Source of the DNA: Escherichia phage BEK2
Strand: one strand, 5' to 3'
Length of the DNA stretch: 46,880 nt
Sequence record: MN158206.1
Every line of letters starts with the position of its first letter. Positions within the stretch are counted from its first letter, which is position 1. This document shows positions 576-44,895 of this stretch, in pieces. The notes under the pieces were generated by a model. It saw only the letters and a list, made by a program, of their open reading frames with translations. It was not told the DNA's origin and ran no database searches. The position numbers were made by a program, and so were the translations under genes.

Positions 576-1088
576 ATGAATTGGCATGATTATTTTGAAT
601 ACAAAGATGGGAAGATTTACTGGAAAGATTACGATAGCGAGAGGCTTGGAAGGAGAAGGATACAGCGAAGATTCATAGGGAAAGAGGTTGGCGGCATTGA
701 TAAAAGCCTAGGGTATGTTAGGGTAAACATGCCTGGTAAAAAATATTGGGTTCATAGAATAATCTGGGAGATGCATAACGGAGTAATACCAGAAGGTATG
801 CAAATTGACCGTATAAATCATGTTAGAAATGTTAATAGGATAGAAAACCTTAGGTTAGTTACAATTCAGGAAAATAGAAAGAATCAGTCAATAAATTCGA
901 GGAATAAGACCGGGGTTACCGGAGTCTGCATAGTATCTAGGACTGGCAAATATGCAGCTCAAATAAAAAAGGATGGAGAGAATATTCACTTGGGATTCTT
1001 TGATAATATTCACGACGCGTCGATTGTCAGGGCGAGGGCTGAATTTATTCTTGGGTATCATAAAAACCACGGGAGGAAAGATGAGTGA
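576..1088 (+). CDS. HNH homing endonuclease with AP2-like DNA-binding domain
   Basis: HNH motif 'YWVHRIIWEMHNG...IDRINHVRNVNRIENLRLVTIQEN' followed by AP2-like 'TGVTGVCIVSRTGKYAAQIKKDG'; 3' end overlaps terL start by 8 nt. Confidence 0.8.
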   Translation: MNWHDYFEYKDGKIYWKDYDSERLGRRRIQRRFIGKEVGGIDKSLGYVRVNMPGKKYWVHRIIWEMHNGVIPEGMQIDRINHVRNVNRIENLRLVTIQENRKNQSINSRNKTGVTGVCIVSRTGKYAAQIKKDGENIHLGFFDNIHDASIVRARAEFILGYHKNHGRKDE

Positions 1089-20513: not shown

Positions 20514-21458
20514 TTAATACATGTCAGGAAGGTAAGGAAGTGGTGTTGATATTGTTACGTCAGGCCTATTCCCTATCTCGTATCTGACAATCCTTGAACC
20601 GGTTCCTGAGCGAACATAACCATTGCTCATCACGATTCCTTTGTTTCTCAACTCCTTATATGCTGGTATTGCCCTTGTGTTAAATCCACATCTAAGTATT
20701 GGGAAGTAAGAGTCACCAATGTACTGGTTGCTACCTGATAGGTTTATGAATCCAGAAACAACCAATGGCCTTGTGACGGTTGATAAAGTGCAGGCACCAT
20801 TTGAGTTAAATATGTTAAGTCCCGGACCAGGGGTTGGTGCTACCATCTGAAAAATAATCAAGTCCATAGTGACACTTCCTGGGGTATCACCAGTATCTTC
20901 AGTATTTATGTTTGTACATATTAACTGATTGCTCCCATTGTACTCAACTGACACACCGGAGTTGCTCCACTTTCCAAATGGAATTCCATAAATTGGCAGC
21001 GTGTAAGTGTCGGTGAAAGATATACTCTGAGCAAACTTGCACACCAACAACCTGTCAGTGGTGGTTATCGAAGTAAAATCAGTACTATTCGCAACATAAA
21101 TACCCTGGCCAGCCGATGCTCTTAGTACCTCAACAACAGTGCCAGAAAATTGCGTTATACGGTCAGAGTATCCATTCTCGTAACCAATTGATATTGTTCC
21201 GCTTGATTCTGTTGATGAAAATCCATTTATGTAGTAAATCTCAACTCCCCTATCAAGTTCGAATGAGTAGGCGCCATTGTTAGGGATAAGGAACCTTGAC
21301 GCTCCTTCATTGCCCTGAATTGAAAATGTCTTACTAAACCCGCCGCTAGAAACGTTGAAATTGCCAGCGAAATTCAATGCCCGCATCCCTGCGGTAATTG
21401 TCATTGGCTTCCTTCCATCATTGAGGTCTATATAAATACCTTGAGCCATTAATTCCAC
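20514..21458 (-). CDS. putative receptor-binding / tail-tip accessory protein
   Basis: 314 aa Gly/Ser/Thr/Asn-rich beta-type protein co-transcribed downstream of lipoprotein gene, adjacent and convergent to J; functional call is inference. Confidence 0.4.
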
Positions 21459-21679
21459 TCCTTAGAGCCATAATCACTAACAGATCCACCGGAGCCTTTA
21501 ATACCAGCGTAGCGAATATCAACCTCACCAGCAGGAACAACTACACCACCTTTCCACTTAGACACGCACACGCCGTTTGCTTGCGTTGCACACCAACCAT
21601 CCGGGCGAGGACCAGAAGAACAACCAACTGCCATGATTACTGCTGCTGCGATGATTGCTGATTTGATGAAGTTATTCAT
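21449..21679 (-). CDS. lipoprotein, Cor/Llp-like superinfection-exclusion candidate
   Basis: signal peptide + lipobox '[10 protein letters not shown]|SS'; ATG 21679 with AAGGAA RBS; small mature domain with 3 Cys. Confidence 0.65.
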
Positions 21680-21714
21680 TTTGTATTCCTTAGTAATTTC
21701 GTTTCGATGGAGTA

Positions 21715-21757
21715 ATAGTATCGCATCCTTGCGATCAGTGTTTAGCAATTAGTGCTA
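21715..21757 (-). promoter_or_regulatory. composite early-type promoter (box + -10 TACTAT)
   Basis: box 21743-21757 (minus sense TAGCACTAATTGCTA), -10 at 21715-21720, leader 'ctccATCGAAACGAAAT'. Confidence 0.55.
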
Positions 21758-22431
21758 TTCGCCAAAAATACAGCTCTTGCAAATCCACGAGGTGTAAGAC
21801 TGCGAATTACCTTTGTTTTCTTGCTCTTCCCGCCTAGCTTCTTGTGCTGGTCTGAGTATCCATCATTAACGTCAACTGGTGAGGCTTGAGGCCATTTAAA
21901 CCCATTGCCAGACCAAATGCACGTCTTCTTAGGATATGCGTCTCTTGGCTTTATTAGGTCGCTAAAAAACGGGTGTAAATCATCTTCCGGCAAATAGCCT
22001 CCGTATTCGTAAGGGTGAAACGTGTTATCAGGTTTACTCCAGAGCGATGACAGCACGCTGACTGGGTTCTCAATCATGTATGGAACTCCGTATTTTTCAG
22101 CCAGTTTAAAAGCAACCTTGCAAGTCTCTGCCGCCTCAATTTGGAAGTTTTGGTTGGCTAGGCGCTTACGCTCAAAGTGTGCTGCCCCGCTCACGGCTAA
22201 ATCCGTACAGGGCGGGAATGCCATGATAAAATCAGGCTTCACATCAAAATCAAAACTGGAATCTATCCAGGCATTAACGTATGTAATGTTCTCATGCTCA
22301 ACCTTTGCATTTAAGTCACTGTAGCTCCCGTGGTCGGAATCATCAAAGTTGAAGCAGCAGCATGTGTGGCCAGCTTCAGCCCAATCATTTACAGCCAAAC
22401 CAGAACCATCAAATAAAGACCAGATAACCAT
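21742..22431 (-). CDS. DNA methyltransferase (FxGxG / PPC / ENP motifs)
   Basis: 'LFDGSGLA', '[12 protein letters not shown]', 'MIENPV'; class (C5 vs N6) uncertain; C-terminus 'NSTNC' encoded by TAGCAC box. Confidence 0.55.
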
Positions 22432-22460
22432 TTCAAAACCCTCTTCGTTAAAGTGCGGCG

Positions 22461-22503
22461 ATTATACTGCACAAAATTTATTGTTCTTTAGCAATTCGTG
22501 CTA
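22461..22503 (-). promoter_or_regulatory. composite early-type promoter (box + -10 TATAAT)
   Basis: box 22489-22503, perfect TATAAT (minus) at 22461-22466. Confidence 0.6.
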
Positions 22504-23172
22504 TTTCTTTTCCAGCAGCAGCTTGATGTCAATGCCGAGATTATTCTCAATCAATCCGGTCAGCGCATCATTCTTTTCTTTAAGAGCGAAGCATTGCGCT
22601 TCATACTTAAATCTTTCCTCCATCTCATTCGAGCGACTAGCCCAACACTGGCGAGCCTCACAAGCCAGCATATCGAGTTTTTCATCGGTATTCTTATCCA
22701 TGAGTAAGATCTCATTTATTCTTTGCTCTGCAACAATGCGCTGGCTCAGGTGTGCATTTTGCGCATTAGCCACACCAAGCATCATTCGAGCCTCTTTTAG
22801 CTCATCAATGCTTACCATCCGGCTGATTACTTCTGCTTGTTTTTTAACTAACGCCTCGAGCTCATGAAGTCGACGGATAACTCTGCGACGAAGAACTACG
22901 CTGTAGCCAGTGATTAGCGTTTCGGTGAGTTCCTTGTTGAGTAAAATCTCAGATGTATAGCCTCGATTATCCGTAAGTACTTGATAATCATCATGACCCA
23001 AATCTGGGGCATCGTTATAATGTAACAATTCATTGATCATTTCCTTTGTGTCGCGAACGACGTGATCATGACGCTTACCTGTCAATTCAGCAATTTCCTT
23101 CGTGCTCATCATGGTTTTTGGCTGTTCTTTGTACGCTTCAATTTTCATTTTAGTCTCTCTTATGCTTTTCAT
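22501..23172 (-). CDS. Rha-family (phage regulatory protein Rha) domain protein with coiled-coil C-terminus
   Basis: 'MSTKEIAELTGKRHDHVVRDTKEM' matches Rha N-terminal domain; start 23172/23148/23112 uncertain. Confidence 0.65.
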   Translation of the reverse strand: MKSIRETKMKIEAYKEQPKTMMSTKEIAELTGKRHDHVVRDTKEMINELLHYNDAPDLGHDDYQVLTDNRGYTSEILLNKELTETLITGYSVVLRRRVIRRLHELEALVKKQAEVISRMVSIDELKEARMMLGVANAQNAHLSQRIVAEQRINEILLMDKNTDEKLDMLACEARQCWASRSNEMEERFKYEAQCFALKEKNDALTGLIENNLGIDIKLLLEKK

Positions 23173-23252: not shown

Positions 23253-23295
23253 AATATACCTAAAGATAGTCAGTTGTCTTTAGCAATTAGTGCTA
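23253..23295 (-). promoter_or_regulatory. composite early-type promoter (box + -10 TATATT)
   Basis: box 23281-23295, -10 (minus) 23253-23258. Confidence 0.5.
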
Positions 23296-24945: not shown

Positions 24946-24988
24946 TAGCACGAATTGCTAAAACAAGGTGGGATAGCTGAGGTATAGT
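24946..24988 (+). promoter_or_regulatory. composite early-type promoter (TAGCACGAATTGCTA + -10 TATAGT)
   Basis: box 24946-24960, -10 24983-24988. Confidence 0.6.
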
Positions 24989-33028: not shown

Positions 33029-33444
33029 AAATTACAGACAAAGTTGACTACATTGAGTTTTACCATGGCCCGGTTAAGTCTTGCCCGAAAGAGGATGACG
33101 AGCAAATCTTTTGCTCTGATTGGGTTAAGTATAACTATCCAGAGATGGTATTTTTCCACTGCGTGAATGAGGGTAAGAAAACCATTGGTCAGGCAAGAAA
33201 AGACCAGGCCAAGGGGCTTCTCAAAGGCGTATCAGACTGTATGTTTCTTATTCCCGAATCTATCCGAGGAAAGTACCCTTTCGGAGCCATAGAGCTAAAG
33301 AGGGCTGGGAAGACGCAGGCTAGTCCGGTCAGCGACGAGCAGAAGTCATTCCTTAAAAGCGTAAGAGAATCAGGAGGTTTTGCCGGGGTAGCCTACGGTC
33401 GCGAGGGTTTTCTAGCGGCGTTTAAAGAAATGATTTCAAAATAG
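33025..33444 (+). CDS. VRR-NUC domain nuclease
   Basis: 'DCMFLIPES...GAIELKR' D..E.K core; coupled to helicase (ATGA overlap). Confidence 0.65.
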   Translation: MKITDKVDYIEFYHGPVKSCPKEDDEQIFCSDWVKYNYPEMVFFHCVNEGKKTIGQARKDQAKGLLKGVSDCMFLIPESIRGKYPFGAIELKRAGKTQASPVSDEQKSFLKSVRESGGFAGVAYGREGFLAAFKEMISK

Positions 33445-33484
33445 CACGAATTGCTAAAGACGTTTCGTTGAGTTGGTGTATTAT
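33442..33484 (+). promoter_or_regulatory. composite early-type promoter (TAGCACGAATTGCTA + -10 TATTAT)
   Basis: box 33442-33456, -10 33479-33484, leader 'ttcATCGAAACGAAACG'. Confidence 0.6.
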
Positions 33485-39929: not shown

Positions 39930-39972
39930 AATATACAGGAAAAGCCCCGAAGGGCTTTAGCAATTAGTGCTA
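39930..39972 (-). promoter_or_regulatory. composite early-type promoter with embedded terminator hairpin
   Basis: box 39958-39972, hairpin aagccc-ttcg-gggctttt in spacer, -10 TATATT 39930-39935, leader 'tctcATCGAAACGAAAC'. Confidence 0.55.
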
Positions 39973-41300: not shown

Positions 41301-41343
41301 ACTATACGCCATCCGTGGCGGTGAGTTTTAGCAATTCGTGCTA
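41301..41343 (-). promoter_or_regulatory. composite early-type promoter (box + -10 TATAGT)
   Basis: box 41329-41343, -10 41301-41306, leader 'cttcATCGAAACGAAACG', spacer inverted repeat cgcca/tggcg. Confidence 0.6.
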
Positions 41344-42798: not shown

Positions 42799-43322
42799 TG
42801 TTTGACTTTAACGAGGATAAACTGACAGAAGAGCAGGTTATGCAAGTAGCCATGGCAGATAGCCTTCCACCACTACGTGTTGCAATCAGCGCTAACGGGT
42901 ATCGACAGTCAACGGCGTTTTGGGGTTCGATTGATACCTCAGAGGTGTATAGTGGTGATGAGCTTGGTGTACTGATTAAAATCATCAGGAAAATGGGAGT
43001 TAACGGCAAAGGAGTTGTCGGCATTAGGTCTCTATACGAAGGTGCTCGCAAGGTTAAGCCCTTTGAGGGTAGCAATGGAATCATGGCGCGTATTAAGGAT
43101 GAGCTCATCCCAGCTCTAGAGGAAATTAATATCGCTTGCCTAATTGGAGATAAGATTTATGTCCACCCAGCTATCATTGATGAGTACTGGCAACCCAACT
43201 TCAAAACTTACGAAGGTGAGCACCCCAGTAGACTACCACACCACTTGCGATACAGTGACGATGAGATAATAAAGGCGATTCGGTTCTACTGGGAAGCTAA
43301 ATCACTGCTTAGCGGCGGATAG
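42798..43322 (+). CDS. truncated paralog of the 37883..39466 ATPase (N- and C-terminal domains only)
   Basis: 'MFDFNEDKLTEEQVMQVAMADSLPPLRVAISANGYRQS' and 'NGKGVVGIRSLYEGARKVKPFE...CLIGDKIYVHP' match both ends of the 527-aa protein. Confidence 0.6.
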   Translation: MFDFNEDKLTEEQVMQVAMADSLPPLRVAISANGYRQSTAFWGSIDTSEVYSGDELGVLIKIIRKMGVNGKGVVGIRSLYEGARKVKPFEGSNGIMARIKDELIPALEEINIACLIGDKIYVHPAIIDEYWQPNFKTYEGEHPSRLPHHLRYSDDEIIKAIRFYWEAKSLLSGG

Positions 43323-43362
43323 CACGAATTGCTAAAAGGGGATTCATCCTGACTGGTATAAT
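43320..43362 (+). promoter_or_regulatory. composite early-type promoter (TAGCACGAATTGCTA + -10 TATAAT)
   Basis: box 43320-43334, perfect TATAAT 43357-43362. Confidence 0.6.
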
Positions 43363-44721: not shown

Positions 44722-44855
44722 TTTACATCCACACGTACTACACTGGTAAGTTTAATAGCGTTAAGCATGCTCGAGTTCACGATAGCTACGATAGTGCAAA
44801 GGCTCAATGGTTGGTTCTTGGTGGTGATATTAATTCATATAGAGTCGCTGAATAG
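44718..44855 (+). CDS. hypothetical small protein (45 aa)
   Basis: ATGA overlap upstream; stop TAG inside box. Confidence 0.35.
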   Translation: MIYIHTYYTGKFNSVKHARVHDSYDSAKAQWLVLGGDINSYRVAE

Positions 44856-44895
44856 CACTAATTGCTAAAACAGTATTGGGGTAATTTGTTATAGT
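44853..44895 (+). promoter_or_regulatory. composite early-type promoter (TAGCACTAATTGCTA + -10 TGtTATAGT)
   Basis: box 44853-44867, -10 44890-44895, leader 'ccccATCGAAACGAACGAGG'. Confidence 0.6.

Follow-up and report, generated by a model that had tools for sequence, protein, structure and literature searches.

A compact Dcm-like cytosine-5 DNA methyltransferase predicted in an accessory cassette of Escherichia phage BEK2

Does the 229-aa open reading frame at 21742-22431 (minus strand, ATG start) encode a DNA methyltransferase, and of which chemical class? The window analysed here is the whole 46,880-nt stretch of Escherichia phage BEK2 (GenBank accession number MN158206.1). Phage BEK3 (MN158207; Drexlerviridae, Braunvirinae) is 99.8% identical to the window, and in its record the same ORF (QGH76800) is labelled "hypothetical protein"; the assignment made below gives a function to this gene. 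We annotate the coding sequence at 21742-22431 as a compact Dcm-like C5-cytosine DNA methyltransferase (PHROG 757). Overlapping ORFs on the plus strand, at 22022-22324 and 22349-22867, were rejected as antisense artefacts. The protein matches phrog_757 ("DNA methyltransferase") over its full length (residues 1-227, E 2.4e-85). A preliminary description of this DNA had proposed a profile search against methyltransferase families as a check. That search gave a single Pfam match, to the C5 DNA methylase family PF00145 (15.8 bits over residues 3-89 only, which is below the gathering cut-off of 22), and no placement in an N6-adenine family. PF00145 is reached at E<0.01 by only 4 of 75 members of the compact family. 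The NCBIfam models did not match the protein and a phmmer search of PDB sequences found nothing. The family profile gave marginal matches to DNMT2 and HaeIII over residues 1-86 when compared with PDB sequences (E 0.36-0.73); a kinase match in this comparison was discarded as spurious. Taken by themselves, these Pfam, NCBIfam and PDB comparisons are weak evidence.

Homologs are found in 1510 of 50,697 phage records, spread over several phage families whose hosts are mostly Escherichia, Klebsiella and Salmonella. Clustering of the compact family gives 4656 clusters at 90% identity, and 1126 representatives remain at 50%. In three longer proteins (P0222, P0237 and P0241; 401-453 aa) the compact methyltransferase domain is located at the C-terminus. 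The N-terminal 170-200 residues of the longer members match no Pfam family and give no hint of a DNA-binding partner. In another member (P0254) an HNH_2 domain is located after the methyltransferase domain. Phage AugustePiccard (Bas01) encodes an 89% identical ortholog, also of 229 aa (bas01_0030), which is annotated in BASEL as "Dcm-like C5 cytosine methyltransferase", a label given by homology only. With this annotated ortholog and 1510 homolog-bearing records, the gene is nothing exceptional in this phage family. The 229-aa protein is an ordinary member of a "Dcm-like" phage family that is widespread and had been described before. The family is already annotated and partly characterised, and nothing here is new in kind.

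The class of the enzyme is indicated by its motifs. The preliminary description had noted FDGSG, FPPC and IENP as resembling C5-cytosine enzymes, and all three can be read from the DNA of the minus strand: FDGSG at nt 22413-22399 (residues 7-11), FPPC at 22218-22207 (residues 72-75) and IENP at 22074-22063 (residues 120-123). Conservation was assessed in an alignment of 75 homologs with 34 to 75% identity to the query. Six residues (C75, G82, P123, P140, Y166 and P181) are invariant. Conservation of at least 90% is found for F72, P73, T76, K89, E121, N122 and D164 and, in the C-terminal part, for K168, T170, W173, R210, P214, G216 and A220. FDGSG is assigned as motif I, the SAM-binding loop after strand beta1; in the structural model it is preceded by a strand (residues 2-6) and followed by a helix (residues 12-19), and hhalign places it on FAGIGG of E. 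coli Dcm. At this position the family consensus reads (F/Y)-D-x-(T/S)-G; only 9 of the 75 members have the first G of FDGSG. FPPC is motif IV, in a loop after the strand at residues 68-71 and aligned with GFPCQ of E. coli Dcm. Its Cys75 (codon 22209-22207), which is present in 75/75 homologs, is the predicted catalytic nucleophile. IENP is motif VI, at the end of the strand formed by residues 118-121 and aligned with LENV of Dcm. Glu121 (74/75) is predicted to be the N3-protonating glutamate of the ENV motif, and it is followed by N122 (71/75) and P123 (75/75). With C75 and P123 invariant and F72, P73, E121 and N122 at least 90% conserved, the three motifs are the conserved core of the family and not chance matches. 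The C5-cytosine type claimed at the outset is therefore borne out, with motifs I, IV and VI in canonical order. The hhalign comparison of the family with E. coli Dcm brings these three motifs into register at an E value of 0.13, which is not significant. One element of the first reading did not hold. The motif signature had been called "mixed", but its three parts, FxGxG, PPC and ENP, all belong to the C5 set (motifs I, IV and VI). PPC in particular is the normal GPPC/FPC Pro-Cys catalytic motif and not the (D/N/S)PP(Y/F) of amino-methyltransferases.

An AlphaFold2 model calculated from 60 homologs is confident (mean pLDDT 88.3, pTM 0.87) and displays the catalytic fold of a C5-methyltransferase. 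As in C5 enzymes, motif I follows beta1, FPPC follows beta4 and ENP lies at the end of beta5. A Foldseek search of the PDB returned the catalytic domains of DNMT3A and DNMT3B as the best matches (E 1e-5); their sequence identity to the window protein is 13-18%. The top structural neighbors are all C5 enzymes, with DNMT1, EhMeth and M.MpeI also named in the comparison and DNMT3, HhaI and HaeIII ranked above DNMT2. Generic Rossmann methyltransferases could be aligned to the model over only about 120 residues. In BFVD, a library of viral structures, the nearest models are proteins of the same family that carry the name DNA-cytosine methylase.

The motif and structure results bear on a different chemistry, in which the enzyme would be an amino-methyltransferase (N6-adenine or N4-cytosine), Dam-like as in T1, with PPC as a degenerate (D/N/S)PP(Y/F). 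The P-P dipeptide fits such an enzyme, and Dam is encoded by T1 (ST20), KarlJaspers (bas06_0042) and many other Drexlerviridae. However, PP is followed by an invariant Cys instead of an aromatic residue and preceded by Phe instead of D, N or S, and ENP follows 46 residues past the Cys as in C5 enzymes. No Pfam N6 or N4 family is matched even at E<=10, the structural neighbors point to C5 enzymes, and the K42 homolog described below yields 5mC. The comparison with T1 is also negative. T1 Dam is, like the window enzyme, an orphan DNA methyltransferase of Drexlerviridae, but it modifies N6-adenine at GATC and is located elsewhere in the genome (39024-39737 in T1, after the helicase and VRR-NUC genes). 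In tblastn searches T1 Dam has no homolog in the window and the 229-aa protein has none in T1, and the window site that is syntenic to the T1 Dam locus contains small ORFs only. The gene had been said to differ from the T1 methylase, and this agrees with the lack of any sequence similarity between the two. On the Pfam result, the T1 Dam comparison, the invariant Cys and the structural neighbors, the Dam-like chemistry is effectively refuted and we assign it a probability close to zero. A second methyltransferase was not detected when ten further ORFs of the window were scanned with Pfam, and no other methylase is annotated in BEK3 or AugustePiccard. The C5 enzyme thus appears to be the only DNA methyltransferase of this phage. 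As a separate observation, GATC is strongly under-represented in the window (69 observed vs 214 expected under a Markov model, obs/exp 0.32). The ratio is 0.78 in T1, a phage that encodes its own Dam; a Dam homolog is missing from the window.

The C-terminal half departs from the canonical C5 arrangement. The canonical motif VIII (QxRxR) is absent and a conserved D164-x-Y166-x-K168-K-T170 is found in its place. This motif VIII-like segment (21913-21942, minus strand; D164-A-Y166-P-K168-K169-T170-C-I-W173) leads into a strand at residues 170-175, and its YxKK part may be functionally equivalent to motif VIII. A conserved motif IX-like segment (21772-21804, minus strand; residues 210 to 220) can be aligned to residues 399-408 of E. 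coli Dcm (RRLTPRECAR); the score is also reached by 37 of 500 shuffled sequences and has no significance by itself. The alignment to E. coli Dcm shows no counterpart in the 229-aa protein to the motif X sequence QFGNSV, because the protein stops 9 residues after the motif IX-like segment. A typical target-recognition domain has roughly 80 aa or more and is located between motifs VIII and IX. Only residues 176-209, about 35-40 aa, lie between the strand at 170-175 and the motif IX-like segment, and no target-recognition domain of that kind is found in the protein. The remark that it is too short to carry one was correct. The protein consists of little more than the catalytic Rossmann domain, with the motif IX-like helix closing the fold. 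For comparison, E. coli Dcm, M.HhaI and M.HaeIII have 327-472 aa. The window enzyme differs from such canonical bacterial enzymes in having YxKK instead of QxRxR, no motif X, only some 35-40 aa where they have a target-recognition domain, a score below the Pfam gathering threshold, and no partner restriction enzyme or Vsr. The DNMT3 catalytic domains are also larger (~285 aa), include motifs VIII and X and bind DNA via dimer or tetramer interfaces. The compact architecture is close to the smallest C5-methyltransferase scaffold and is of some enzymological interest.

Is such a reduced protein still a DNA methyltransferase? The sub-threshold Pfam score, the missing motif X and the non-canonical motif VIII would also be expected of a weak or inactive remnant, or of an RNA enzyme like DNMT2, retained for some function unrelated to DNA methylation. 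Two further residues could be counted in the same direction: at the motif II and motif III positions the protein has N28 and W55, and most of the wider family has D. The gene is also dispensable, since the close relative BEK6 lacks it. The conservation data argue against decay, however, since the catalytic residues are all under strong constraint in 75 divergent homologs. N28 and W55 are compatible with activity because the active K42-type enzyme carries the same N and W. DNMT2 is outscored in the structure comparison by the DNA enzymes DNMT3, HhaI and HaeIII, and the K42 homolog methylates DNA. We consider a remnant or an RNA enzyme highly unlikely.

The K42 enzyme provides the experimental reference for the family. 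Mutants of phage K42 (a KarlJaspers-like member of the Drexlerviridae) that escaped retron Ec86 all carried changes in a 711-bp dcm gene (bioRxiv 10.1101/2023.08.16.553469; later Cell Reports 2024). Expression of K42 Dcm was toxic only in the presence of the retron, LC-MS showed that the enzyme raised 5mC on the Ec86 msDNA, and a C82A/E128A/K175A/K176A quadruple mutant was inactive (bioRxiv 10.1101/2023.08.16.553469). Later papers take Dcm as the Eco1 trigger. The KarlJaspers (Bas06) gene bas06_0055 (711 bp, 236 aa) is annotated as Dcm-like, and its product shows 59% identity to the window protein over the full length (E 1e-98). Residues C82, E128, K175 and K176 of the K42/KarlJaspers enzyme correspond to C75, E121, K168 and K169 here, and the tiwna ortholog shows the same residue correspondence as the KarlJaspers enzyme. 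The two proteins share the size class, the motifs and a Cys-to-Glu spacing of 46 residues, and both are encoded by accessory genes of Drexlerviridae. They differ in their setting. KarlJaspers belongs to the Tempevirinae and the window phage to the Braunvirinae; the KarlJaspers dcm lies among early genes near a helicase gene, whereas the window gene lies between roi-like and cor-like genes; and KarlJaspers also encodes Dam (bas06_0042), which the window phage does not. Because the K42-type homolog is active, its four mutated residues are kept and N28 and W55 are common to both enzymes, we predict with high confidence, from sequence, model and analogy, that the 229-aa protein is an active DNA C5-cytosine methyltransferase.

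The group that is transferred to C5 was considered as well. A structure match to 8yf3 prompted the idea that the enzyme may add a carboxymethyl group from carboxy-SAM (Cx-SAM), made in E. coli with CmoA, as phage CmoX does. The host CmoA would be able to supply Cx-SAM to a phage enzyme. The position in motif X that selects the cofactor (HhaI N304, CmoX R350) is absent in the family, so that the cofactor choice is unreadable from the sequence. On the other hand, the product raised on msDNA by the 59% identical homolog was 5mC by LC-MS, and DNMT3B, DNMT3A and other true methyltransferases score equal to or better than 8yf3 in the structure comparison. CmoX genes typically adjoin a phage cmoA and a ligase gene, and no such neighbors are annotated in BEK3 or AugustePiccard. 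Carboxymethylation is extremely unlikely on these grounds, and methyl transfer from SAM remains our assignment.

The target site is a different matter. CCWGG was assumed for the K42 enzyme from E. coli Dcm, and its only support is the mutated CCTGG of the msDNA (bioRxiv 10.1101/2023.08.16.553469). The retron trigger assays were carried out in MG1655 with the host dcm present, and in this strain, as long as the phage enzyme was absent, msDNA methylation was low and the retron remained silent (bioRxiv 10.1101/2023.08.16.553469). The host dcm gene is found in the MG1655 sequence (locus L008, 2900-4318). Since host Dcm left the msDNA poorly methylated and the retron silent, the phage enzyme must differ from it in some respect. 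Base composition gives no hint of the target because the CCWGG obs/exp ratio in the window (0.83) is the same in T1, which does not have the gene. It is possible, though doubtful, that the family is a minimal type of C5-methyltransferase without motif X that does not recognize CCWGG and that works as a DNMT3-like dimer, reads a site that is short or relaxed, or acts on single-stranded or hairpin DNA. The minimal architecture and the target specificity of the compact family are what remains of interest in this gene.

The steps of a SAM-dependent DNA (cytosine-5) methyltransferase can be proposed for the enzyme from the established C5 chemistry of the superfamily. The target cytosine would be flipped out of the helix and attacked at C6 by Cys75 of FPPC, and Glu121 of ENP would protonate N3. 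C5 would then receive the methyl group from SAM bound by the FDGSG loop, and beta-elimination would release the enzyme. The likely role is methylation of the phage DNA during infection, which would protect it from cytosine-sensitive restriction. For Drexlerviridae, the BASEL study saw no simple link between the possession of methyltransferase genes and resistance to restriction. The methylation may also be a liability, as it would be sensed by retron Ec86 (Retron-Eco1), a response known from the 59% identical homolog. Two predictions follow: virion DNA should contain 5mC even when the phage has been grown on a dcm-negative host, and the phage should be sensitive to Retron-Eco1 (Ec86), a retron that senses enzymes of this class.

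How the gene is carried in the genome can be seen from its flanks. It lies between two copies of a short box, which form a 19-nt direct repeat with a distance of 746 nt. The upstream box TAGCACGAATTGCTAAA (22487-22503, minus strand) is the left copy of this repeat. It has the palindromic core TAGCA-N5-TGCTA, and its TAG serves as stop codon for the gene before it (22501-23172, minus strand), which encodes a Rha/Roi-like regulatory protein (PF09669). The downstream box TAGCACTAATTGCTAAA (21741-21757, minus strand) encodes the last codons of the methyltransferase gene, AAT AGC ACT AAT TGC TAA (NSTNC and stop), and also heads the promoter of the next gene, which encodes a Cor-like lipoprotein. 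This downstream neighbor (21449-21748, minus strand) is a phage lipoprotein of PF24052 and occupies the place where T1 has its Cor superinfection-exclusion gene. The close relative BEK6 (locus L007, 2180-2262) has the same neighbors, a single box and no methyltransferase gene. The GC content of this 746-nt presence/absence cassette (window 21741-22505) is not atypical. The whole region is carried by only 2 of 126 related records. The single box without the gene in BEK6 and the two carrier records mark the gene as an accessory cassette. It was probably gained or lost as an exchangeable module by recombination between the promoter boxes, as the arrangement of the repeats suggests. AugustePiccard shares the downstream junction, the box-encoded NSTNC tail and the promoter region with the window, but has two small ORFs between bas01_0030 and the roi-like gene. 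The box-flanked cassette illustrates accessory gene swapping in Drexlerviridae.

The upstream box is also part of the putative promoter of the methyltransferase gene. A perfect -10 hexamer TATAAT (22461-22466, minus strand) is found 29 nt before the ATG and exactly 20 nt past the upstream box, and a candidate Shine-Dalgarno sequence GAAGAGGG (22439-22446, minus strand) is located 7 nt before the ATG. A generic sigma-70 scan calls nothing at this gene, since a -35 hexamer at 16-18 nt is lacking. A search with the 24 nt around TATAAT gave no further exact copy; the repeated element sits further upstream. This is the box TAGCACNAATTGCTAAA, present in 19 copies in the window at <=3 mismatches (0.22 expected), 11 of them perfect. 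Its consensus is TAGCAC[G/T]AATTGCTAAA, with the same core as the upstream copy. A -10-like hexamer follows 17 of the 19 boxes, at a distance of exactly 20 nt in 15, compared with 17% of random positions, and the 17 boxes with such a hexamer are oriented toward the downstream gene. The leader CATCGAAACGAA is conserved after eight of the 19. No good -35 hexamer at sigma-70 spacing was found at the box copies. The claim that the gene has its own TATAAT promoter with a box therefore stands as far as the sequence elements are concerned, with 19 box copies and TATAAT 20 nt further on; its promoter function is predicted. Examples of the box are found on the plus strand at 2650-2666, 24946-24962, 33442-33458, 43320-43336 and 44853-44869, and on the minus strand at 23279-23295, 39956-39972 and 41327-41343 in addition to the two flanking copies (21741-21757 and 22487-22503). 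The TAG of the box often doubles as the stop codon of the preceding gene, and T1 contains five perfect copies. Elsewhere in the window, an ORF annotated in BEK3 as a homing endonuclease (576-1088, plus strand) is located between the genes for the small and large terminase subunits.
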